NCBI GenBank assembly: GCA_965601925.1
Contig: OZ271854.1
Location: 3,488,001 to 3,552,000, forward strand
Length of the DNA stretch: 64,000 bases
Origin: Alkalispirochaeta sp.
Lineage (GTDB): Bacteria; Spirochaetota; Spirochaetia; DSM-27196; Alkalispirochaetaceae
Reading direction: 5' to 3'
Every line of letters starts with the position of its first letter. Positions within the stretch are counted from its first letter, which is position 1. Shown piece by piece: positions 2 to 15,318 of this stretch. The notes beneath the pieces were generated by a model. The model had not been told where the DNA came from. It did not search any database and saw only the letters and a program-made list of their open reading frames with translations. Made by a program: the position numbers and the translations under genes.

Positions 2-733
2 GTGATCGGATCGGGACTCGCGATTAACTCGATGAAGACGACGGCTCGGCGTCGAGAGACGATGATCCTCTCCTATATCGATCGGTATCACGCCGAGTTC
101 GAGGGGGAAGAGGCCCCTCGTTGGTACGACTACCGCTACGCCGACGCGATCGAAGGGGGCGATATCCTCGTCCTGAGCGATACGGTGTTGGCCGTCGGCT
201 GTAGCGCCCGCACCTCACCGGAGGCGATAGAACGGCTCGCCGAGACTCTCTTCGTCGGCGGGTCGGCCATACAGGAGGTCCTCGCGATTCAGATCCCCTT
301 CAAACGGGAGTACATGCATCTCGATACGGTCTTCACCATGCTCGATGTGAATAAATTTCTCATATTCCGAGGGATTGAGAATGAGACCAAGGTATTCAGT
401 CTGCGGCCGGGAGCCCGGGGACACCTCAAGATCGCGACCTGCGAGAGTCTCAAGGAGGCGCTCGATAGCGCTTTGGGACGCGACGACGTTCGTATTCTCG
501 GAAGCGGCGGAGAGGATACGATCACCGCGGCTCGGGAGCAGTGGAACGACGGTACCAACACCCTGGCCATCGCACCGGGAACCGTCGTAACCTACCGACG
601 AAACCAAGCCTCCAACGATACGTTGCGCAAAAACGGCGTCGAAGTGGTGGAGATCGAAGGGTCCGAGTTGGTCAGAGGACGCGGCGGTCCGCGCTGCATG
701 AGCATGCCTCTTCGACGCGCACCCGTCGGCTGA
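2..733 (+). CDS. arcA: Arginine deiminase, C-terminal part (truncated by window edge)
   Basis: Motifs [29 protein letters not shown] and [15 protein letters not shown] (catalytic Cys); directly upstream of OTCase. Confidence 0.95.
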
Positions 734-797
734 AATCTCGAAACGAACGAGCCGCTCGGGGCTCGGATTCATAACACTCACGAGGAAGGAGTTTGCA

Positions 798-1790
798 ATG
801 GCGATCAGTTTGAAGGGACGGCACCTGTTAACCCTCAAGGATTTCACACCCGAAGAGATACGATTTCTCCTCGACCTCTCCCTCGATCTGAAGCGAAAGA
901 AACGGGCGGGCGTCCGGGGAGAGCTCCTGGACCGGAAAAACATCGTCCTGTTGTTCGAGAAGACCTCTACCAGAACCCGTTGCGCCTTTGAGACCGCCGC
1001 CTTCGACGAGGGAGGGAGCGTCACCTTTCTTACGAACAGCCAAATGGGAAAGAAGGAGTCGATCGAGGATACGGCCAAGGTCCTGGGCCGCTACTACGAC
1101 GGTATCGAGTTTCGGGGCTTTGAACAGAAGACCGTTGAGGACCTCGCTCGCTTTGCCGGCGTACCCGTCTGGAACGGTCTCACGGACCTCTACCATCCGA
1201 CGCAGATTTTGGCGGATCTCCTCACGCTCAAGGAACACTGCCCGAAGCCCCTCAACAAAGTGAAACTCGTCTACGCAGGGGACGCCAGGAACAACATGGG
1301 AAACTCCCTGATGATCGGCGCAGCGAAGATGGGCATGCATTTCGTGGCTCTCGCCCCGAAGGCGCTTTTTCCCGCCGAAGAGCTGGTGGTCGAGATGCGC
1401 GAGATGGCGCGGGAAACGGGGGGAACGATCGAGCTGTCGGAGGATATAGACGCCGTCGGTGGCGCCGATGCCCTGTATACCGATGTGTGGGTCTCTATGG
1501 GCGAGGAGGCGATGTTCGCCGAGCGGATCGAACAGCTTCGACCCTATCAGGTGAACATGGAGATGATCAAAAAGACCGGCAACGACGATGTGCTCTTCCT
1601 CCATTGTCTCCCGGCGTTCCACGACCTGGAGACGAGCATCGGCAAAGAGATCCATGAGAGGTTCGGCCTAAGCTCCATGGAGGTGACCGACGAGGTGTTT
1701 CGTAGCAGGCATTCCGTCGTTTTTGATGAGGCGGAGAACCGAATGCACACCATTAAGGCTGTGATGGTGGCGACGATCGGGAATCTTTAG
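798..1790 (+). CDS. arcB: Ornithine carbamoyltransferase (catabolic by context)
   Basis: FEKTSTRTR carbamoyl-phosphate motif, HPTQ, FLHCLP, EAENRMH; RBS GGAAGGAG upstream. Confidence 0.95.
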
Positions 1791-3886: not shown

Positions 3887-5698
3887 TCAACGCTCAAAGA
3901 TTCTCTTCCCGAAGGCCGAGCCGACGAGGTTGCACAAACCTCTATCGTCGATCCAACTTTTGTCGGGAGTGCCGGAGATGTCGAAGGCGCGCATCCCCGA
4001 GGTGGCGGCGATCATCTCCATAGCCAGGTGCGCCTCGCGAAAGGTGAGGCCCTCTCCCTCAGCGCCGATGACGTCGGTACTGAGGCGGGCGAGGAACCCT
4101 TCGGTGCCCGTCGTTACCGTTCGGAGGGCCTGGATCATGACCTCCCGCATGCCCAGAAGGTCGATATCTTCCATCGTATAGACCGGCACGCGTCGCTCTC
4201 GAATGAGCTCGGCCTCCCCCTCGGTGACGTCCCGCAGCCCCACGAGCACGATGTTCTCCGGGGAGAAGACCGAGTACAGCGTGGCACCTTCGTCCGTAAG
4301 ACCGAGCACGGTGGCCAAAAAGCGATGGTTCTCATCTCCATCGAGCACCAGGGACGCGCGTGGCGAGAAGACGATGAGCCCGGCGTGGTGCAGCGTCCGG
4401 GACAGACCCTCGAGAGCCGCCACGGTTCGATTCGCCTCTCCGCCGATGAGGGGGAGCTTGTTGTTCTCGACCGCTTCGGCGATCAGGCCCTCACTGATCG
4501 GGGTCGTGACGATCTCGTGATCGAATCCCATCTCTTCCAAATGGTCGAGCAGAATCTCCTGCGTGAAGGTGGGGGAGTTTCCCAGCAGAAGGATATGATC
4601 GGACTTCACTACCGTCTCGCCCCCCATCCGGGGCGTCTTTTGCACGTACGGTGATGTCATCGCCGCCAGAAGGGCGCCGTAGTCGAGATCGAACTCGACT
4701 TTGTCCCCTAAGTGTAGCTCCCGTGCCGACGGACCGACCTCGATTAGAAGGTGATCGCTCGAGGCGCCGAGCACCGTGACGCCCGAATCGACGGCGCTGA
4801 GGTCGTCGGTCACCACGTCCTCTCGCCCCACATTGAGGATCGCCCGGAGAATGTCGCCCCGGTCGGAAAAGGCGTGCCGCTCCCCAAAGGCGTCCATACC
4901 GGTCTCTCCGACGGGGACCGACGGCTTCTTTTTGAGCTCGATGACCTCCGCCGAAAGGCGGAACGCGTCGGGGCGACAACCGGGCCAGAGAGTGCCCCGG
5001 GCCGTCTCGCGTCCCAAAATGATCGACTCGCCCAAACGCAGATGGTTGATACGTTCCGGCATCCCGCCCTCGGCGAGGAGGGGCAGCGAGGACGAGTTCC
5101 CGCCCGATACGATCTCCAGCGCCATCCCGAAGCTCTGCTCGATCCGGTCGGCGTAGTCCACGAGCGCGCCCATGTTCTTGCGCGACGGGAGCACACCGCC
5201 GAAGCAGGTGAGGTTGGTTCCGATACCGACGACCCTCACCCCGTCGAGGGCGACTACTTCCCGGGTTATCTCCATGAGATCGGAAGGCCATATCCCCTCG
5301 CGCAGGTCCCCGAGGTCGACCATGAGAATGATCTTGTGGATCTTTCCCTGCCGAATAGCGGCCTCGGAGAGGGAGCGCATGATGGGGAGCTCTGAGTTCA
5401 GACTGATGTCGGCGTTGGCGACGATCTCGTCGACGCCGGACAGGGGCGGAATACGCAAGAGCATGATAGGCGCGTTGATGCCGCTCCGTCGCAGGCGCTT
5501 GATATTCTCGATACGCGATTCCCCGAGGCCGACGACGCCACCGTCCAACATCGCTCGTCCCACGAGCGGCATGCCGCAGGTGACCTTGGTGACACCCGTT
5601 ACCGCGATGCCCCGGGCGGCGCAAAACTCGACGAGGGTCCGTGCGTTCTCTCGTACGGCGGGAATGTCGATGACGACTTCGGGACCGGACCTCATCAC
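3887..5698 (-). CDS. orr: Ornithine racemase (PLP fold III) fused to a degenerate arginase-like C-terminal domain
   Basis: VTGVTKVTCG (PLP Lys), LMVDLGDLREG, GTNLTCFGG, SGGNSSS, GASSDH; last gene of ornithine operon; ~240 extra aa resembling arginase. Confidence 0.85.
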   Translation of the reverse strand: MMRSGPEVVIDIPAVRENARTLVEFCAARGIAVTGVTKVTCGMPLVGRAMLDGGVVGLGESRIENIKRLRRSGINAPIMLLRIPPLSGVDEIVANADISLNSELPIMRSLSEAAIRQGKIHKIILMVDLGDLREGIWPSDLMEITREVVALDGVRVVGIGTNLTCFGGVLPSRKNMGALVDYADRIEQSFGMALEIVSGGNSSSLPLLAEGGMPERINHLRLGESIILGRETARGTLWPGCRPDAFRLSAEVIELKKKPSVPVGETGMDAFGERHAFSDRGDILRAILNVGREDVVTDDLSAVDSGVTVLGASSDHLLIEVGPSARELHLGDKVEFDLDYGALLAAMTSPYVQKTPRMGGETVVKSDHILLLGNSPTFTQEILLDHLEEMGFDHEIVTTPISEGLIAEAVENNKLPLIGGEANRTVAALEGLSRTLHHAGLIVFSPRASLVLDGDENHRFLATVLGLTDEGATLYSVFSPENIVLVGLRDVTEGEAELIRERRVPVYTMEDIDLLGMREVMIQALRTVTTGTEGFLARLSTDVIGAEGEGLTFREAHLAMEMIAATSGMRAFDISGTPDKSWIDDRGLCNLVGSAFGKRIFER

Positions 5699-7062
5699 CC
5701 GTTCTCCAGATACCGGGTGAGGAGCCGAGTCGCGTCTTCCGGATACTCCGTCCCGAGGACGCCGACGGAGGCCATGATGTAGTGCCGGTCGATGAGAATC
5801 TTCGGAACGGCCGGGGGAAGAAGGTCGTTGGCACTGCCCGTTGTGAACAGTTCTTCAAGTTGGGCTCGCCCCGTCCCGAGCCGCGTCAGAGTCCCGCCGG
5901 TGCCGACGACGTGCTTCACCGCCGTGAGGTCTCGCCCCACGGCGACGGTCCTTTTGCCCCCCGAGGCGAAGGAGTCGCCGTATTTCCCGGCGTGGCGGTG
6001 AAGGGCGAGTTTGAGGGCCGTCAGGCTCAGCTCGCCGACCAAGGTGCGCTCCGTGTCGTCGGCGGGAATGGGGCCTAAGGCCTCGACGGCGGCGTGAAGG
6101 TCCCTCTCGGCGATTCCGGTGACTCGGGACAAGCGCTTGGGGTCGGAGCACTCCAGGACGTTCATTCGGTTGATGTACACGCCGAGGTCCCCTTCGACGC
6201 TCCGCTTGGCGTCCGGTTCCGGGGAGATTTGGATCGCGCCGACCTCCTCGCTGCCGTCGGTGGCGGAATGGACGTCCGTGGTCGCGCCGCCCACGTCGAA
6301 GGTCATCACATCGCCGAGCTCTCGTTTTAACAGAAGCGTGGCCTCCATGACGGCTCCCGGTGTCGGGATCACAGGCCCGTCGACGAGATCGCGAATCTTC
6401 TCCATGCCCGGGGCGTGGACGATGCACTCTTCAAAGATCGCCTGAATCGCCTTGCGCGCCGGGCGAACCTCCAAGCGATCGATAGCGGGGTAGACGTTAT
6501 CGACGATGTAGAGCTTCGAGGCGGTCGATGAGAATATGCTTCGTATCTCGTCGTGGTTCTGAATGTTGCCGGCGTAGAGGATGGGAACGGCGAGACCAAG
6601 CTCGGCGATCTTCTCAGCGTTGTCCAGGGCCGTATCGCGCTCGCCGTAGTCGACGCCGCCGGCAAGCATGATGATGTTCGGTTCCAGGGATCGAAGCGTC
6701 TCGAGCTCCGTTCGGCGTAGTCGCCCCGCGGTGATTTGGTGGATGTTGGCTCCGGCACCCAGGGCCGCCTCCCGGGCGGCGCGTACCGTCATGTCGTAGA
6801 CCAGGCCGTGGACCGTCATGCGAAGACCGCCCGCCGCGCTGCTCGAGGCGAGAAAGCGTTTCCAATGCAGATCCTCGATCTCGAGGGTTCGTTTCAGATC
6901 GTCCAGGGCGGCGTTCATCCCCACCGTTACGTCACCGGCTCCGACGCTTGTCGGCGCCGAGCCTTGACCGAGATGGCGTGGGGCGGCCGTTTCGAGGCCC
7001 CCGAAGGCGTTCACGACGGTGGTGGTGCTCCCGATCTCCGCCGTGAGGAGATCTACGGTCAT
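5695..7062 (-). CDS. GlmL/MutL-like putative reactivating factor of B12-dependent ornithine aminomutase
   Basis: Start re-set to MTVDLLTAEIGSTTT (TGATG overlap with oraE); SSSAAGGL, LAGGVDYGE, PTPGAV, DVGGATTDVHS, RSVEGDLG. Confidence 0.85.
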   Translation of the reverse strand: MTVDLLTAEIGSTTTVVNAFGGLETAAPRHLGQGSAPTSVGAGDVTVGMNAALDDLKRTLEIEDLHWKRFLASSSAAGGLRMTVHGLVYDMTVRAAREAALGAGANIHQITAGRLRRTELETLRSLEPNIIMLAGGVDYGERDTALDNAEKIAELGLAVPILYAGNIQNHDEIRSIFSSTASKLYIVDNVYPAIDRLEVRPARKAIQAIFEECIVHAPGMEKIRDLVDGPVIPTPGAVMEATLLLKRELGDVMTFDVGGATTDVHSATDGSEEVGAIQISPEPDAKRSVEGDLGVYINRMNVLECSDPKRLSRVTGIAERDLHAAVEALGPIPADDTERTLVGELSLTALKLALHRHAGKYGDSFASGGKRTVAVGRDLTAVKHVVGTGGTLTRLGTGRAQLEELFTTGSANDLLPPAVPKILIDRHYIMASVGVLGTEYPEDATRLLTRYLENG

Positions 7063-9275
7063 CAGAGCCCCCGCTCGTCCCTGTTCTTCACCAGGAAGGT
7101 CGCCACTTGGGACCCGTCGGTGCCCCGACCGAAGGCGCGGTCCACGCCGTAGCGCTCGGCGACCTCCGGCGAAACTTGGGTGCCCCCGGCGCAAAAGATG
7201 ACTCTGTCGCGAACGCCCTTTTCGACGCAGGCGTCGTGGATCTTTTGCATGTTCTTATAGTGTACGTCGTCGTGGCTGATAATGGTCGAAGCGAGGATCG
7301 CGTCGGCGTCGAGCTCGATCACGGCGTCCACCAACTTTTCTACGGGACACGAGGTGCCCAGGTAGTGGACCTCGATGCCGAACTGTTCGATACCGCCGTG
7401 TTTGATGTCGATGATCTCCCGCAGGCCCACGGAGTGTTCGTCCTCTCCCACCGTCGCCGCCACGACCTTCATAGGACGCGTCTTGATCGCCGCCGACAGC
7501 TCCTCGAAGCTCATGATTTCCGGCTCCTCCGGGACGACGAGCGTCTCCAAGTCGATGCTGTGGGGAAAGCTACCCTTGATCTCTACGCGTGTTCCTTCGG
7601 CGGCCTGCAGCACCTCCGTATGAATGACCTCCACCTCTTCGAGGCCCATCTTTTTGCCGACCTCGATGGCGGCGTAGTAGGCGGTCCGCTCGTCCACCGG
7701 AAGAAACATGGTTGTCTGCACGACGCCGTCGCCGGCCCATTCCATCTCCGGTTTGACGATGGCTTTTTCTCGGTAATCCCGGGTCTCCTCGAGGCGCGCA
7801 TTGACGTTGTCAGCCGCGTCGAGCTCGTCGATGAATATAATCTTCTCGGGCCTCTCGAAGGTTCCGCCGCCGATGAGCGACGCCGGGTCCCGTACCGCCT
7901 CGTCGCCGTAGGGCTCGAGGTTGTTGTAGCCGAAGTGGGCCGTGACCGGCGCCATGTAGTCCGGGGCCCGCTCGTAAACGGTACCGGCCCCGATGCCGCC
8001 GTCGATGTGCCGGACGATGGCGTCGTCGTTTCGTTCGGGATAGTACCCGGAATCGACGAAGAAGCCTTCTTCAACGGCGTTAAAGTAGCCGCCGACCTCG
8101 ACCATCTCTTCCAAGTAGAGAACGGCACGCTCCTTGAGCTCTCGCACTTTATGGGATAGTTCGCCCTCTTCGCGGCGAATCCGGACCATCTCGGAGAGGC
8201 CGTCCATGCCGGCGAAGGCCTGGTTGGCCGTGTCGGTACCCTCGATGTTGTAAATGTGCCAGGGAACGTTCCGCCCCTCGTCGGGGGTGATGGTCGACTG
8301 TATCTCCGCTCGAGTGAGTTTGGAGATCAGGAGGTTCAGGGTGTGAGTAACGGTAGCCTCCCGGGTGGAGGAGCCCATGTATTTCGTGTTCTGCTGAGCC
8401 CGCATCTTGTACTCAGAGAAGAGTTCGCGCAGGGCGACGGCGTAGGGGAGGTCGAGGCGCATGCAGGGAGCGGGAGGAGCCGTCGGCGGCACCGTTGAGA
8501 GGCAGATGTTCTCTTTCTTCATGCCGACTTTGACCGAGAAGATCGAGTTGAGGCCGTGCTGTACCATGAGCTCGGGCATGACCTTCCAGGCGTCGCGCGC
8601 CGTGGCGTTTGCGTTGTGCGCGCCGTCGATCTGGGCGATCCCCGCCCAGGCCATGATCGTTTTGGCCGCGGCGGCGTCGACGAAGGAGCGCACCATGTTG
8701 ATGTTGCGGTAGAGTACGTTGTACTGCGGGTCCTGGTGGGCGCCGTTCACTCCCTCTTCGGCGAAGAGTACGGCGATCTCAGGCCCCGCCACACCGCTTA
8801 CGTAGGAGTGGTAGTTAATGGGGCGTCCCACCTCGTCTTCGATAAGGTCGAGGGCCTTTCTTTGGGCGCGGAGCTGCTTGCGGGTGATGGGCACGCCGCC
8901 GATCCCTTGGGGCGTCCCTTCCAGGAGGCCGTCCATGTGGCTCTGGCCGGCGGTGCGTATAACCATGAGGTGATCCGCGCCGTGCCAGGCCGCCATCCGC
9001 ATGCGTCGGATATCGTCCTCGAAGCGCCCCGAGGCGATCTCCGTGGTGATGGTGCTCGTGGGTTGCGGTGCGATGCCGTCGAAATACCTGCTCGCCGGCA
9101 ATCCCACCGCCCGATCGAGCTTCTCGCTCGTTTCGTAGTACTCGAACTTGCCGAGTCGTTGCTTCGGACCCGCCCCTTTGCGCCAGATCCAGTGCCGCCT
9201 GCGAGGACGATAGTGCTCCAGGCCCTTCAGTATTTCGACGACGTCTATCTTCGTATTCGGATCAAGGGGCTTCAT
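7062..9275 (-). CDS. oraE: D-ornithine 4,5-aminomutase large subunit
   Basis: TEIASGRFEDDIRRMRMAAWHGADH; B12-binding GEDEHSVGLREIIDIKHGG (PLP Lys); start MKPLDP after AGG-rich RBS. Confidence 0.95.
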   Translation of the reverse strand: MKPLDPNTKIDVVEILKGLEHYRPRRRHWIWRKGAGPKQRLGKFEYYETSEKLDRAVGLPASRYFDGIAPQPTSTITTEIASGRFEDDIRRMRMAAWHGADHLMVIRTAGQSHMDGLLEGTPQGIGGVPITRKQLRAQRKALDLIEDEVGRPINYHSYVSGVAGPEIAVLFAEEGVNGAHQDPQYNVLYRNINMVRSFVDAAAAKTIMAWAGIAQIDGAHNANATARDAWKVMPELMVQHGLNSIFSVKVGMKKENICLSTVPPTAPPAPCMRLDLPYAVALRELFSEYKMRAQQNTKYMGSSTREATVTHTLNLLISKLTRAEIQSTITPDEGRNVPWHIYNIEGTDTANQAFAGMDGLSEMVRIRREEGELSHKVRELKERAVLYLEEMVEVGGYFNAVEEGFFVDSGYYPERNDDAIVRHIDGGIGAGTVYERAPDYMAPVTAHFGYNNLEPYGDEAVRDPASLIGGGTFERPEKIIFIDELDAADNVNARLEETRDYREKAIVKPEMEWAGDGVVQTTMFLPVDERTAYYAAIEVGKKMGLEEVEVIHTEVLQAAEGTRVEIKGSFPHSIDLETLVVPEEPEIMSFEELSAAIKTRPMKVVAATVGEDEHSVGLREIIDIKHGGIEQFGIEVHYLGTSCPVEKLVDAVIELDADAILASTIISHDDVHYKNMQKIHDACVEKGVRDRVIFCAGGTQVSPEVAERYGVDRAFGRGTDGSQVATFLVKNRDERGL

Positions 9276-9642
9276 GGTGTACCGCCTCAAAAAGGGCTGC
9301 CGCATCGTCCCAGAGTTCGTTCCCCGCGAGCTTGAGACCCGCCTCTCTGATCTCCATGCCCTTCGCCTCGGCCAGTTTGTAGACCACGTGGCCGGCGCCG
9401 TGGCCGATGAGGTTCTTGTCTATCGCTCCGTCGACGATCGAAGCGCTCTCCAAACTCGAAAAGCCCATTCTCAAAAGAACCGAGCGCTCGATCGAGGGGG
9501 TGGTGTGTCGCGCCGCCGTCTCGACGATGGGTTCCATGAGTCGCTCGCAGAGCTCCCAGAAGCGCCGTTCCAGCTCTTTTTCGCTGAGTCCCTTCAGATG
9601 AACGCGCCGCTCCTCGAAATCGTCTCTTCGTTCCATACTCAC
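9262..9642 (-). CDS. oraS: D-ornithine 4,5-aminomutase small subunit
   Basis: RRDDFEERR.HL...RFWEL, HTTPSIERSVLLRMGFSSLE; position before oraE. Confidence 0.93.
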   Translation of the reverse strand: MSMERRDDFEERRVHLKGLSEKELERRFWELCERLMEPIVETAARHTTPSIERSVLLRMGFSSLESASIVDGAIDKNLIGHGAGHVVYKLAEAKGMEIREAGLKLAGNELWDDAAALFEAVHHEAP

Positions 9643-11057
9643 GCCGCTCCCTTAAAGGCATCGATAATCTTCCGGACCTCTTCGACGCCGATTTTCGTCT
9701 CATCAGCGAGGTAACGGAGGTCCTCCGACGCGATCTCATCACCGGCATCCGTCTTGGCGAGGCAGTTGCGGATGTAGGATCTCCGTATCTTATCGAGATC
9801 GAGATCGACGGCCCTGATCTGCGCGGGATGCTCGGGCAGGATGATCGAACGTCCCGGGATCTCTTCTGCGGGATCACCGAAACGGATCTCGATGCCGTTG
9901 TTCCGGGCGAAGGAGAGTTGAGGTTGAATGTGCTTTCCCGCGCCGGTGTATTCCGTCTCTTGAACGACGATGGTCTCCCCCTCGTTCATCTCTTGAGCCA
10001 GAGAGAACGCGGCGGCGAGCGACACGTTTCCCGCGGGACCTCGTTCCAGGCCCTCGAGCTGTGCGAGGGCTTCGGTCATATAGAAAACCTCGCCCTGCCG
10101 GACGGTCACATAGCGGTCCATGTAGCGCAACGGGCGCGCCGCCGAGCGCGGTACGTCGGAGCGGTCGGGGTTCGTCGCAAAGGGAATGCCGAAACCGGTG
10201 TGCCCCGTGGTGAAAGACTTGCGGTTGAACTGTGTGTCGCTCGCCATGTGAAGCCCTGAGAGGTCCACGCTTGCCGCAACGATCTCCGTGTCGGCGGCGC
10301 CGGCCTTGGTGAGGCCCCGAGCGGTTCCCGTGATGTTTCCCCCTCCCGCGGTGGTGACGACCACCCCGTCGGGGTTGCGTCCCGTGAGGCCCGTCATCTG
10401 TTCCGAGATCTCGTATCCCAGGGTCTCGACCCCGGCTATGCCGAAGGGCGTGTAGAGTGAGGCGTTAAAGAAGCCCGTCTCCTCCAACAGCCGGAGGAAG
10501 GCGTAAAAGAGTTCCGGTCCTACGGAGAGTTGAACGACCTCGGCGCCGTACGCCTCGCACTTTCGAGCCTTCTCTATGGTTTCGGGCTGTCCTTTGCCGG
10601 CCGAGTCGTAACACTCCTGAACGATGATGCATTTTAAACCCCGCATGGCGGCCTGGCTTGCAACGGCGGCGCCGTAGTTACCGCTTGTGGCGGCGATGAC
10701 ACCGTTATAGCCGAGCTTCTCGGCGTGATAGACACTGATCGCGGCGCGCCGGGCCTTAAAGCTCCCGGAAGGGTTTGACGCCTCGTCTTTGAGGAAGATC
10801 CGCGCCCCCTTTCCCGGTGCGGCGACCGTGCGGCAAAGGGCCGTTATGCGTTTCAGCTCGTAGATCGGGGTGTTGCCGACCCCGGCGCCGCGCTGGATGT
10901 CGCGGATCTCCGGAAGGGAGTAGCCGACCTTTTTCATCATCCCCTCGTAGTCGAAGGCGATCGATCCCGATTCGAACTGCCCGTAGTCGATACCGACCGA
11001 GGCCTTCATGATTTCGCCCCTCCGGGCCATGAGGCTATTGTAGTCCTTAGCGGCCAT
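9639..11057 (-). CDS. ortB: 2-amino-4-oxopentanoate thiolase beta subunit (PLP fold II)
   Basis: NPSGSFKARRA, ATSGNYGAAVA, QFNRKSFTTGHTGFG, ETEYTGAGKH. Confidence 0.93.
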   Translation of the reverse strand: MAAKDYNSLMARRGEIMKASVGIDYGQFESGSIAFDYEGMMKKVGYSLPEIRDIQRGAGVGNTPIYELKRITALCRTVAAPGKGARIFLKDEASNPSGSFKARRAAISVYHAEKLGYNGVIAATSGNYGAAVASQAAMRGLKCIIVQECYDSAGKGQPETIEKARKCEAYGAEVVQLSVGPELFYAFLRLLEETGFFNASLYTPFGIAGVETLGYEISEQMTGLTGRNPDGVVVTTAGGGNITGTARGLTKAGAADTEIVAASVDLSGLHMASDTQFNRKSFTTGHTGFGIPFATNPDRSDVPRSAARPLRYMDRYVTVRQGEVFYMTEALAQLEGLERGPAGNVSLAAAFSLAQEMNEGETIVVQETEYTGAGKHIQPQLSFARNNGIEIRFGDPAEEIPGRSIILPEHPAQIRAVDLDLDKIRRSYIRNCLAKTDAGDEIASEDLRYLADETKIGVEEVRKIIDAFKGAA

Positions 11058-11364
11058 GACTCAGCTCCTCTTCGTCAAGTATGGCCCGGAGCTTTCGCCC
11101 GATCTGCAGGACCTCGGGGATGAGGCTGCCCCAGGCGTGATCGAAGCCCGGGTTATGCTCAAGGAGCTCGCCGGAGATACGGCGGCCGATAATCGTCTCG
11201 ATCTCGACGGTGTCACCGAAGGAGGCCTCTTTGTTCACCAAAAAGCCCTTGTCCCACATCTCCAGGGGAACGCCCTTCGTATCCTCCGGGACCTGGGGCG
11301 CCCGCTCCGAGGCCCGGAGTATCGTTTCGTGTATTCTGACCCAGTCGCCGCGTCTTGCATCCAT
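11047..11364 (-). CDS. ortA: 2-amino-4-oxopentanoate thiolase alpha subunit
   Basis: GDWVRI...L...ERAPQVPEDTK.VPLEMW.KGFL; between ord and ortB. Confidence 0.92.
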   Translation of the reverse strand: MDARRGDWVRIHETILRASERAPQVPEDTKGVPLEMWDKGFLVNKEASFGDTVEIETIIGRRISGELLEHNPGFDHAWGSLIPEVLQIGRKLRAILDEEELSHGR

Positions 11365-11367
11365 GGC

Positions 11368-12417
11368 TCACCTCTCGATCAAATCGCGCATGTCCCCCAT
11401 GACCGCCCGGGGCACGGGAAGGTCGATCATCGTCTTCAGGCCAGCAGAGGCGTTTATCACGTGGGGAATCATGTTGACGCACATGGCGATCGTCCCGACG
11501 CCCCCGGGGACCTCAGGCTTGATCGTCATATTGATGTCCGGAGTCCCTTTGATGCGGATGTAGTCCCCCGTGTCGGTGCCTTCGAGCTGGGGCTCGATTT
11601 GCTGGGGGTGGATCATCTTGATCTTCTCCTCGCCGTCGACGAATCCGGCGCCTTTCATGGTGCACCCCGCGACCTCGCCGGGTTGTACCTCGGCGTAGGG
11701 GGTCCTGCGGTGGACCCTCGAGACGATGGGCTCCATCGATTGGCGTACCGGCTCGCTGAGCTTCCAGCCGAGTGCCTCGGTGATCATGCCGACCGACTCG
11801 TTGAAGCCCACGTGACCGGCCAAGGTCTTGCTGCGAACCCCATCGGCAAACTGCTCCTCCGTAAGACCGACGCCCTGCTCCTCCATAACGGCGGGACCGA
11901 ACGGAGAGAGACTGTTGACCCGTTCCGCCTCGATCCGTTCCACGTCGATGCACGCGCCGGTCAAGGTGATCACCAGAAGATCCATGATGAGGCCCGGATT
12001 GATACCGGTGCCCAGGACGGTCGCGCCGTGTTCCTTGGCGATCCTGTCGAGCTTTTCGGCCAGCTCCGGTTCCGACGAGCGGGGAAAGGCCATCTCCTCG
12101 GCGGTAGAAATGACGTTCAACTTGTGTTCGAGGAGAAACGCGATCTTGTCGAAAGCCTCGGTCGTGAAGGAATCGGTGGCCAGGAGGGCGACATCGGCGC
12201 AGCCGTCGCTCACAAGGGATCCGATGTCGCTCTCGACGATGAGCTCCGGATGGTTGCCGCGATCCACATCCAAGAGGGCGTAAATACTTTTACCCTCCCG
12301 GTCGGGATGTTTGTCGCAGACTGCGGAAATCGCTACCCCTCGTTTCTTCAGGAGCATCTTGGCCATGCCGCTCCCCATGGCCCCGAAGCCCCACAATAAG
12401 ACTCTCAGATTCTCCAT
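11368..12417 (-). CDS. ord: 2,4-diaminopentanoate dehydrogenase
   Basis: WGFGAMGSG Rossmann motif, STAEEM, GTGINPG, GHVGF, PEVPGG.GT; start MENLRV after AAGGGGAG. Confidence 0.93.
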   Translation of the reverse strand: MENLRVLLWGFGAMGSGMAKMLLKKRGVAISAVCDKHPDREGKSIYALLDVDRGNHPELIVESDIGSLVSDGCADVALLATDSFTTEAFDKIAFLLEHKLNVISTAEEMAFPRSSEPELAEKLDRIAKEHGATVLGTGINPGLIMDLLVITLTGACIDVERIEAERVNSLSPFGPAVMEEQGVGLTEEQFADGVRSKTLAGHVGFNESVGMITEALGWKLSEPVRQSMEPIVSRVHRRTPYAEVQPGEVAGCTMKGAGFVDGEEKIKMIHPQQIEPQLEGTDTGDYIRIKGTPDINMTIKPEVPGGVGTIAMCVNMIPHVINASAGLKTMIDLPVPRAVMGDMRDLIER

Positions 12418-12469
12418 CGGTTCACTCCCCTTGTGGTGGAACGACATCGGCAACGTAGAATCGCTGCTA

Positions 12470-12652: not shown

Positions 12653-13049
12653 ATGGATGAACGGAAGATAGTCGTCGTCGCCCTCGGTGGAAATGCGATC
12701 ATCCAAAAAAGGCGCGCAGGGGGATATCCACCGGCAGTTTGCCAATACACGCATCTCGATGGGAGAGGTGTTCAAGCTGATACAACGGGGCTATAGGGTG
12801 TTCGTGACGCACGGTAACGGTACCCGGGTGGTAGACCTAATGCTCATTGACGGACAAGGCTCTGGAGATCTTGCCTGAGACGCCCTTGCGGTCGCCGACG
12901 TCATGACCGCCGGTTCCATGGGACCGAAGATCCTTGCGGCGATCGAGTTCGTCCAGGCGAATCCGGAAAACAGGGCGATTATCACCGACGTGGAGCACCT
13001 CGAAGATGCCGTTCGGGGAGAGGCGGGAACGGTGATCAGCGCGTACTGA
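12653..13049 (+). pseudogene. arcC: Carbamate kinase pseudogene (frameshift, in-frame stop, large internal deletion)
   Basis: MDERKIVVVALGGNAI, then after +1 shift VFVTHGNG, TGA at 12876, then AGSMGPKILAAIEF...AIIT...GEAGTVI*; about 130 codons versus about 310 aa for typical ArcC. Confidence 0.85.
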
Positions 13050-13064
13050 ATCGATCCGGACGCG

Positions 13065-13886
13065 TCATTGGCCGTATTTCTGCCGGAGTCGTTCGAAGTT
13101 CTTACCGAAGACCTCATCTACCGTATCACCGAGATAGTTTTTCACCTCGGCGATGTAAAAATCGTGAATGATGAAACCCTCGATCGATTTGATCAGCCCC
13201 TTGTTCCGCGTCCAGACCGACTGGCACGGGGATATCCCTCCCAAGCTCCCGGCGATGCAGACGTTGGAATCCACGACCAGGTCGAGGGACCTTCCGCTTT
13301 CGGCGATGTCGTTGAGGTTTTCGATGCTGTGGTAATGTACCTCTCCGAACTCCGGTTCCGCCGTCCCGTAGAGGAGAATCAGGATTCTGGCCCCCCGCTT
13401 CTCGGCCTTTCGGAACGCCTCTTCCAGGACCTCGAGCTCCTCGTCCCAGAGCCCGACGAAGATCTTTTCTTCCGCTTGGGCGATGAGCTCCGCGGCCATC
13501 TCAAGCGCTTCGGTCCGTCCCGACAGGTTCCATACGGGGTCGAAATCGGCGGTGAACTGGATGGAATCGAGCTGCTCTTTGAGCTCCGACGTCAGCTTCG
13601 AGTTGTCCCGCCGCAGGCGCGCCACGAGCTCCTCGGGAGAGATGGGAGAAAAGAGCTCCGGGTTCGTCCCCTTGGACGTCACATATCCCCGTTTGATCAA
13701 GCGCCGGGTGGTATCGTACACGCGGGAATGCGGAACGCTTGAGTTCTTCGAAATGCTGTACGCGCTCATGGGGTGGTCATCGAGAAGGGCCATATAGACC
13801 TTGCCCTCGTACTCGGTGAAACCGAGCTCCTTTAAATTGCCTATAATCGCATCCGTCGGTGCACCGCTCGTCTTGCGCTTCGTCAC
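13065..13886 (-). CDS. TrmB-family transcriptional regulator
   Basis: LKELGFTEYEGKVY.ALL, S.VPHSRVY wHTH plus PLD-like effector domain; probable GTG start 13886 (ORF extends to 13973). Confidence 0.88.
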   Translation of the reverse strand: MTKRKTSGAPTDAIIGNLKELGFTEYEGKVYMALLDDHPMSAYSISKNSSVPHSRVYDTTRRLIKRGYVTSKGTNPELFSPISPEELVARLRRDNSKLTSELKEQLDSIQFTADFDPVWNLSGRTEALEMAAELIAQAEEKIFVGLWDEELEVLEEAFRKAEKRGARILILLYGTAEPEFGEVHYHSIENLNDIAESGRSLDLVVDSNVCIAGSLGGISPCQSVWTRNKGLIKSIEGFIIHDFYIAEVKNYLGDTVDEVFGKNFERLRQKYGQ

Positions 13887-14124
13887 CCGCCTATGATCCG
13901 CCGCGATTCCCGTTTCGTCAATCGTCACGGGTGCGGGAACGGATCGGGCCGGTATGCAGCCGCGACGATTCACGTTCGCGTCGCGGAAACCCGAGACGAC
14001 GGAATCGGGCTTCCGCCGACACCCGGAGGACGTCCCGAGTAGTGAGACCCAGCCGGACAGTCTCAGAATAGATGCCTTGCCACGGATAAAGAGTAAACGT
14101 CGAATGTGCTATGATTGAAGTACG

Positions 14125-15318
14125 ATGAGTGACGCGCAGCAAACGGCCCAGGATCCCTTCGGCTTTCTCGGTTCTTCGTTCTCCTTTCGGAACAATCAAG
14201 ACGAGATACGGCGCAACCTCACATTGATCATCAGGATCCGCTGGTTCGTCTCACCGAGTATTCTCCTCATCATGGTCCTCGCGGGCTTGATCGGTGTAGC
14301 GAACCAGTTCACCTTCTCGATCGAGCAGATTGCGATCAACGGTGTCAACGTCCTCATCATGCTCATGCTCAATCTCTGTTACACCGTTCTCGCTCGGCGA
14401 GTTGAGGACCTCGGCCCGCTCGTCGTTCTCCAACTCATGATCGACGTCATTCATTTTGCCTTCACCGTGTACAAGACCGGAGCGGTGACCAGTCCTTTTA
14501 CGTTCCTCTTCTTCTTCGTGATCTTCTCCGGAGCGCTCCTCGTATCGGGACGCACCGCGTACTTCATAGCGGGCATCTCATCGTTCCTGTACGGAGCCAT
14601 CGTACTACTCGAGCGAATCGGGATCATACCGCATCAGGCGTACTTCAGTCCGTTCTCCGGTCTGCAGGAGAATCTTTCCTATTTCTTCTTGAGCGTCGGC
14701 TTCACGATCGGCTCGATGTTTGCGTTTGCCGCCCTTGCGGCGTTTCTCACCGGTCTGATCCACCGCCGTCAAGAGGAGCTGCGAAAGACGGTGCGGCTGC
14801 TGCGCGAGAAGAACGATACGATGCTCATGCTCTTCCGGACGGCGGAGACGCTCAACCGGCACGTACAGATCGATGAGGTCGGCGAGTACGTCCTCGACCA
14901 GTTGATGGGCCATCTCGATCTCGATCGTGCATTACTCTATCTCGTCGAGGGCGACGTGCTGAGGCTCCTACTCGTGCGGACTAGAGGCGGCCGCACCGAC
15001 GATTCGGTGACTCTCGAGATTCCACTCACGATCGAGTCGGGGCTCACCGCCCGCGTCGCGATAGAGCAAAAGGCGTTCAACGTCCGCGAACCGGAACGGT
15101 CCGAGCTGATCAATCGAGAACTCGCCAAGAAGGTCGGTCTCAACCCCTTTGCGATCGCACCGCTGGTGCTTCGCGGCCGCACGGTCGGAGTGATCGGCAT
15201 CGATCGCAGCGACCATCCGATCAAAACCGAGGAGTTTCAGGTGCTCAAGGCGTTCGCCAACCAAGCGGCGATTGCGATCGACAGCGTTCGTCGCGTCGCC
15301 GCGTCGGAGCGCACGTGA
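14125..15318 (+). CDS. Membrane protein with about 6 TM helices, coiled coil and C-terminal GAF domain
   Basis: Hydrophobic N-terminus with IRW and TG..TSPF; C-terminal APLVLRGRTVGVIGIDR...FANQAAIAI. Confidence 0.8.
   Translation: MSDAQQTAQDPFGFLGSSFSFRNNQDEIRRNLTLIIRIRWFVSPSILLIMVLAGLIGVANQFTFSIEQIAINGVNVLIMLMLNLCYTVLARRVEDLGPLVVLQLMIDVIHFAFTVYKTGAVTSPFTFLFFFVIFSGALLVSGRTAYFIAGISSFLYGAIVLLERIGIIPHQAYFSPFSGLQENLSYFFLSVGFTIGSMFAFAALAAFLTGLIHRRQEELRKTVRLLREKNDTMLMLFRTAETLNRHVQIDEVGEYVLDQLMGHLDLDRALLYLVEGDVLRLLLVRTRGGRTDDSVTLEIPLTIESGLTARVAIEQKAFNVREPERSELINRELAKKVGLNPFAIAPLVLRGRTVGVIGIDRSDHPIKTEEFQVLKAFANQAAIAIDSVRRVAASERT

Follow-up and report, generated by a model that had tools for sequence, protein, structure and literature searches.

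An ornithine racemase fused to a catalytically dead arginase domain that retains a predicted trimer interface

In Salmonella OrnR, Lys36 and Cys164 have been assigned catalytic roles, and racemases of the Fold III/Orr type are described in the same source as obligate dimers (PMC13397332); the words "arginase" and "fusion" do not occur in the main text of that paper. A dead arginase tail on an ornithine-using enzyme is described for Fusobacterium Oda, an ornithine decarboxylase (PMC8503589; PMC12826042). According to the cited passages, this arginase domain is not needed for F. nucleatum to grow, and the role of the tail is a matter of speculation (PMC12826042). A ureohydrolase without metal, MetCb, is required by its active partner MetCa, and the roles of metal-free arginase homologues are called elusive in the text cited (PMC11271267).

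The gene described here lies in the window, i.e., the whole stretch of 64,000 nucleotides that was analysed. The initial annotation had read it as an ornithine racemase joined in one frame to an arginase-like domain; this reading was borne out, and every motif quoted in its favour is present. An uninterrupted single ORF (3887-5698, minus strand) encodes the fusion, with the following features:
3887..5695, minus strand: orr-arginase fusion gene, 602 aa, ornithine racemase plus pseudo-arginase; alternative GTG start at 5698
4631..5695, minus strand: Orr racemase domain, residues 1 to ~355, by NF040742 (E 1e-130), with PLP Lys37 and catalytic Cys164
5585-5587, minus strand: codon of PLP Lys37
5204-5206, minus strand: codon of catalytic Cys164
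3890..4606, minus strand: pseudo-arginase domain, residues 364-602, by Pfam Arginase, 1cev alignment, model and structure matches

The ATG at 5695 is the likely start, as it overlaps the stop codon of the upstream or-4 gene and agrees with database protein P0002 (602 aa), the form in which residues are numbered throughout. A frameshift or assembly artefact was ruled out: the frame is common to P0003-P0040, 37 of these 38 proteins being 598-604 aa long and one partial. No terminator-like site was found downstream of the gene. A model of the full-length fusion reached a pLDDT of 86.8 and a pTM of 0.83. Because the matches listed for this model in a fold search were all of the racemase fold, the C-terminal domain was folded separately.

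The N-terminal part has the alanine-racemase fold and gives a full-length match to NF040742 (435.5 bits, from residue ~5 to ~354 or 355), in line with its earlier identification as ornithine racemase. The score lies below the 480-bit cut-off, which was exceeded in none of the 99 genomes of the order. Of the fusions that cover the respective positions, all 77 have K37 and all 81 have C164. To judge by sequence, the racemase domain is likely active and would feed D-ornithine to the adjoining aminomutase pathway.

The C-terminal domain matched Pfam Arginase (E 3e-11), B. caldovelox arginase 1cev (E 3e-17) and TIGR01229 (E 5e-17), the last with 62 bits, far from the cut-off of 227.6 bits. Its model, folded alone, had a pLDDT of 92.7 and matched B. 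subtilis arginase 6nfp with a TM of 0.86 and T. thermophilus arginase 2eiv with a Z of 28.1 (rmsd 2.1 A over 230 residues). Structure comparison, the check that had been proposed for the fold, thus showed that the domain adopts the ureohydrolase alpha/beta fold. The three metal-binding motifs are degenerate:
4430..4444, minus strand: GGEAN (418-422), degenerate GGDHS; first Mn ligand lost, H to A421
4352..4369, minus strand: FSPRAS (443-448), degenerate xDAHGD; three Mn ligands lost, D, H and D to S444, R446 and S448
4070..4084, minus strand: LSTDV (538-542), degenerate LDLD; first Asp lost (S539), second kept (D541)

The initial annotation had regarded the metal ligands as missing altogether. 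This holds for five of the six ligands of the binuclear Mn centre, but the last Asp of the DxD motif survives as D541. The SGNxHG substrate loop is deleted and the catalytic His and Glu are lost, the Glu of VEVNP being replaced by G575, so that the domain in the window, as read from its residues, is without a catalytic site.

The fusion gene is the last of an ornithine cluster with the order ord-ortA-ortB-oraS-oraE-or4-orr, and arcA and arcB lie on the opposite strand, 2 kb past its 3' end:
5695..7194, minus strand: or-4, GlmL-related ornithine degradation protein (NF040744 above cut-off); true start probably later
7062..9305, minus strand: oraE, D-ornithine 4,5-aminomutase large subunit (NF040743 above cut-off)
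9262..9642, minus strand: oraS, aminomutase small subunit (PF16552)
9639..11057, minus strand: ortB (NF040741 above cut-off)
11047..11364, minus strand: ortA (NF040739 above cut-off)
11368..12453, minus strand: ord, 2,4-diaminopentanoate dehydrogenase (NF040740 above cut-off)
2..1790, plus strand: arcA (3' part; the gene begins before the window) and arcB, arginine deiminase route to L-ornithine (PF02274, PF00185/PF02729)

Several neighbouring genes were recorded in passing. Two carbamate kinase (arcC) fragments, at 12705-12851 and 12888-13040 on the plus strand (model positions 14-62 and 259-308), lie between ord and a TrmB gene and look like an internally deleted arcC. The TrmB-family regulator itself (13065-13973, minus strand) is upstream of ord; because homologues of ~50% identity adjoin orr in two other genomes (L133, L134), it is a candidate for the control of ornithine oxidation. 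The gene at 14125-15318 (plus strand) encodes a membrane protein that combines a PilS-like 6TM region with a GAF domain and is without a kinase or other output domain.

Judged by the names of the nearest homologues, a spirochaete is the probable host. The host genome has one Orr, an intact arcC elsewhere and three other ureohydrolases, one of which is agmatinase-like and one nearest to the dimeric Zymomonas arginase, with the third of similar make-up. Two arginase-like genes (G000:C1:1419539-1420534 and 1399896-1400858) have Cys in place of the GGDH His (GGTCG and GGGCA), and the product of the former is nearest to Zymomonas arginase 6ksy.

It had been proposed that ArcA and ArcB, by supplying ornithine, make arginase catalysis dispensable. 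An ArcA-type deiminase is present in 10 of the 99 genomes of the order, as called at E <1e-84 with the next best match at 4e-63, the cut being set at this gap after the scores had been seen. Of these 10 genomes, 7 carry the fusion or a fragment of it at a contig edge, versus 2 of the other 89, and arcA and arcB adjoin the ornithine cluster in L002-L004. The co-occurrence rests on three related groups, whose members are kin and not independent, and one genome (G005) has a dead fusion without an ArcA-type deiminase above the cut. It supports, without proving, the view that arginine deiminase made arginase catalysis redundant, and the proposal holds loosely.

A search with the C-terminal domain identified 48 proteins of 331-1056 aa, 45 of them with both Pfam domains; some two dozen fusions of greater distance came from a profile search, and locus scans contributed others. 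Their source labels cover several phyla, including Spirochaetales, Victivallaceae, Sumerlaeaceae, Pseudogulbenkiania and one Planctomycetota genome, and in the scanned fusion loci the ornithine cluster is the same wherever the contig shows it. The ESM Atlas holds two clusters with both domains (110 and 92 members). In a 401-genome sample of the phylum, 3 of the 24 matching genomes carry the fusion and stand-alone Orr is commoner, and among the 99 genomes of the order all seven Orr matches with E <1e-100 are fused. Only 1 of 16 genomes of the same genus has a match, at 37% identity, compared with up to 69% for named Oceanispirochaeta proteins; this uneven distribution may result from patchy loss or from transfer.

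The collection of racemase-arginase fusions that the initial annotation had called for came to 88 distinct fused domains, in which ligand loss is graded and, as set out below, purifying selection is evident. All six metal ligands are present in 7 of these domains, four or five in 3, and three or fewer in 78. These counts leave out P0067 and P0069 (apparent frameshifts), L008 (not parsed), L081 (self), and L001-L003 and L006, which were taken as near-duplicates of protein records. P0059 is the sole fusion to keep both the metal ligands and the equivalents of N130, S137, N139, H141 and E277, and it passes TIGR01229 with 233.4 bits. Six others (P0045, P0047, P0049, P0056, P0185 and L055:6207-8594) have all six ligands and have lost the arginine-binding loop; these possibly still bind metal or use another substrate.

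In a tree of the C-terminal domain, 40 fused domains fall on one side of a branch from 19 free arginases (SH-aLRT 99, weakened by long branches), consistent with a single fusion of Orr with an arginase. The trait is not part of the racemase domain, and on a tree built from that domain three changes are needed to account for the six-ligand state. Since a regain of six ligands is unlikely, we infer at least three losses; this tree was rooted at its midpoint, and the order of events was deduced on that footing.

Other gene arrangements came to light in these searches. Orr-like racemases are also fused to Ord (P0065), to a D-Ala-D-Ala dipeptidase domain (P0096, with P0117 a similar partial protein), to a D-Ala-D-Ala ligase-like ATP-grasp domain (P0162) and, in tandem, to a second racemase (P0060). 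P0046 is a 719-aa fusion of an intact arginase with a class III aminotransferase (RocF-RocD-like). In L211 (1422-7063), as well as in L178, L179, L181, L212 and L220, an Orr-like racemase and an intact arginase are encoded by separate, overlapping genes. The L211 pair sits between genes for a MurJ-like flippase and a MurT-like ligase, a position that suggests production of cell-wall D-ornithine from arginine; the arginases of such pairs do not have the trimer residues and are similar to the Oda domain.

The initial annotation had suggested oligomerisation as a role for the domain, and three segments form the interface predicted here:
4160..4177, minus strand: TMEDID (507-512), predicted trimer interface; D512 corresponds to B. 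caldovelox D199, and E509 is fusion-typical
4016..4051, minus strand: GLTFREAHLAME (549-560), predicted trimer interface; R553, E554, H556 and E560 correspond to B. caldovelox R249, E250, H252 and E256
3899..3910, minus strand: GKRI (596-599), C-terminal interface motif; R598 contacts E509 of the neighbouring subunit in the model

B. caldovelox residue numbers were taken from the 1cev alignment. Three copies of the C-terminal domain were modelled as a confident ring with an interface score of 0.90, compared with 0.02 for the best control; the contacts agreed between runs to at least 95%, and the partner pLDDT was at least 89. The model thus gives computational support to oligomerisation. A calibration of the complex score with two copies had passed 20 of 30 solved homodimers and 1 of 23 single chains; the trimer run differs from this calibration in its three copies and its own alignment, and its pass may stem partly from likeness to solved arginase trimers. 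The surest contacts are those of D512 with R553, E554, H556, L557 and E560 of the next subunit, and of R598 and I599 with E509.

The homotrimer-interface residues of the arginase family are found at this predicted interface and are invariant. R553, E554, E560 and G596 are present in 88 of the 88 distinct fused domains, R/K598 in 87, E509 in 86 and D512 in 85. We also considered the 37 positions that are at least 95% conserved in the 19 free arginases. At these positions, 41 dead fusions (de-duplicated at 70%) retain 5 of 6 in the interface and 4 of 31 elsewhere; the Fisher p of 0.0016 is rough, as kin are not independent, and the interface set was drawn from a model folded with the same alignment. 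Interface surface residues are invariant across sequences less than 30% identical. The remainder of the domain is looser: identity to 37 close relatives is 74% for the racemase, 72% for the interface half and 47% for the active-site half. In eight unsaturated pairs from three lineages (6 of 14 pairs were saturated and left out, the window's own pair among them), dN/dS was 0.05-0.12 in the interface half and 0.07-0.11 in the racemase, compared with 0.14-0.30 in the half that once held the active site.

Decay within one lineage, the outcome that the initial annotation had set against its own reading, was ruled out by the occurrence of fusions in many lineages, the conserved interface and dN/dS; what was found is a domain conserved over many lineages (88 fused domains, dN/dS 0.05-0.30) and not one evolving neutrally in one. 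Residue labels such as D204, R255 and E262 follow rat/human arginase numbering. Five free arginases with complete catalytic residues are without the equivalents of R255 and E262, that is, most of the interface residues, and the dead Oda domain 8D27 is without those of D204, R255 and E262. As all of these fold without most of the interface residues, the latter appear dispensable for the fold.

Two of the interface residues have a further association. The B. caldovelox counterparts of D512 and E560 in the alignment are D199 and E256, which we take to be rat D204 and E262, and D512 and E560 touch across the predicted interface. B. caldovelox arginase mutants of D199 and E256 reportedly stayed hexameric, which suggests that these are ligand residues and not glue. 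In the rat enzyme, R308 bridges E262 and D204 of the adjacent subunit, and in 3CEV, which is without R308, free L-arginine occupies that place (both as described in PMC7925462). An arginine-activated allosteric site in B. caldovelox arginase is named in a title cited in PMC11271267 and PMC6988801. At the register of R308, 83 of 83 fusions have I, L or V (Ile in the window protein), and the tails beyond it vary, so an R308 equivalent is not conserved; the acidic pair is kept, and R598, which lies beside E560, may fill the pocket. E509 is Glu in 86 of 88 fusions versus 8 of 72 free arginases, and it contacts the neighbour's R/K598 (87 of 88). In three fusions (L085-L087) Ser replaces D512. Since the active site is gone, arginine sensing, the other role that the initial annotation had suggested, would, if it occurs, take place at this inter-subunit pocket.

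Taking the model and the conservation together, we give a probability of about 0.5 to the reading that the arginase-derived tail is a structural trimerisation module on a likely active Orr, derived from a former two-enzyme fusion. By this account, one fusion of Orr with a RocF-type arginase would have produced a two-step enzyme from Arg through L-Orn to D-Orn. On at least three occasions catalysis would then have disappeared, in many cases where ornithine comes from arginine deiminase, while the three-fold interface would have remained under selection. Because Orr-type racemases are obligate dimers and the tail is predicted to form trimers, the two could combine into a hexamer of three racemase dimers and two trimers, or into a larger stabilising cage; the acidic arginine pocket would be filled by the protein's own basic tail or be vestigial. 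Against a trimerisation module stands the fact that most Orr are stand-alone (3 of 24 fused), which indicates that these racemases are not generally in need of a trimer. Such a module also leaves two acids, D512 and E560, facing each other at the interface unexplained, the trimer score may mirror solved trimers, and interface and conservation share an alignment.

Those two acids would find a use if the tail were an allosteric sensor of L-arginine or a guanidino compound at D512/E560, tuning assembly or racemase activity, a reading that we consider less likely but the main rival of the trimerisation module. It draws on the correspondence with D199/E256, the contact across the predicted interface and the unconserved R308 equivalent, and the co-occurrence of ArcA-type deiminase and fusion (7 of 10 vs 2 of 89) makes arginine the likely upstream substrate. 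However, the meeting of R/K598 with the fusion-typical E509 of the neighbour suggests that the protein may provide its own cation; D512 contacts R553 as well and is hence explained by the trimer alone; and S512 in L085-L087, together with the origin of the co-occurrence in three related groups and a post hoc cut, weakens the case for sensing. In its full form, for which we would claim only a tentative standing, an arginase would have been pared down to its allosteric site through several independent losses of the catalytic centre, with the inter-subunit pocket reporting arginine to the racemase by gating a dimer-by-trimer assembly. If true, bacteria would have an arginine-sensor domain of a new kind, and the fusion would be a natural combination of two symmetries with the capacity to build hexamers or cages. 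The family would also test the in vivo relevance of the second arginine site of bacterial arginases.

A tail that docks another protein (OraSE, Or-4 or an active ureohydrolase), as MetCb does for MetCa, would suit a gene that is translationally coupled to or-4 and ends the ornithine cluster in many loci, in a host with three other ureohydrolases. We regard docking as unlikely, given that conservation is concentrated in the self-interface, and the loci read show no free arginase gene next to the fusion. A hetero-oligomer with the host's own ureohydrolases has little support, as those proteins are agmatinase-like or nearest to the dimeric Zymomonas arginase and are without the interface motif. 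That the tail is a relic evolving neutrally, preserved solely because a truncated racemase would fold or be expressed poorly, is improbable and largely refuted by interface-half dN/dS and by surface residues invariant below 30% identity, even though stand-alone Orr is common, the Oda domain is dispensable and a few short racemases, possibly fragments, nest among the fused ones in a fast tree. Least probable is a new metal-independent or single-metal catalyst: the intermediate group (P0045, P0047, P0049, P0056, P0185, L055) hints at a changed substrate there, but the clade of the window is without any conserved active-site position, its ligand positions vary freely and its loop is deleted. The trimerisation module and the sensor could be separated by a few mutants, since nature offers the family in grades, from near-intact through metal-only to dead, and its conserved surface is sharply defined.

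Among known systems, Orr/OrnR (NF040742; the Clostridium sticklandii cluster; Salmonella STM2358) shares with the window protein the Fold III PLP Lys/Cys pair and the last place in the cluster, whereas the window protein adds a 240-aa arginase-derived tail and scores below the cut-off. RocF-type arginases (TIGR01229; 1CEV/3CEV, 6NFP, 2EIV) have the same fold, trimer-interface residues and second-arginine-site residues; by comparison, the window domain is ~50 residues shorter and has Lys at the trimer-trimer position of B. caldovelox E278. MetCb (of metformin hydrolase) and the T. brucei arginase-like protein likewise have a ureohydrolase fold without the binuclear site, but they are separate polypeptides, and MetCb pairs with an active paralogue, of which none was seen for the fusion.

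The initial annotation had named the architecture the best candidate in the window for an undescribed one. It is already present in database labels, some members being called "predicted amino acid racemase/arginase family enzyme" by JGI, and the dead tail has a precedent in Oda; the part that stands is that no paper on a racemase-arginase fusion was found among titles and abstract openings, a search whose scope ended short of most subscription papers. Other members are labelled "arginase" or "alanine racemase", and arginine catabolism is therefore misassigned in anaerobe genomes. Fusobacterium Oda (PDB 8D27) similarly joins an ornithine-using PLP enzyme to a C-terminal arginase domain that is inactive in some lineages. 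Its N-terminal domain, however, is an AAT-fold ornithine decarboxylase and not an alanine-racemase-fold Orr, and its pattern of loss is the opposite one, with only two Asp ligands changed, the substrate loop kept and the interface residues absent. A dead arginase tail on a PLP enzyme is thus known, and the present fusion family differs in its partner, its breadth, the depth of its decay and the interface that it has kept.
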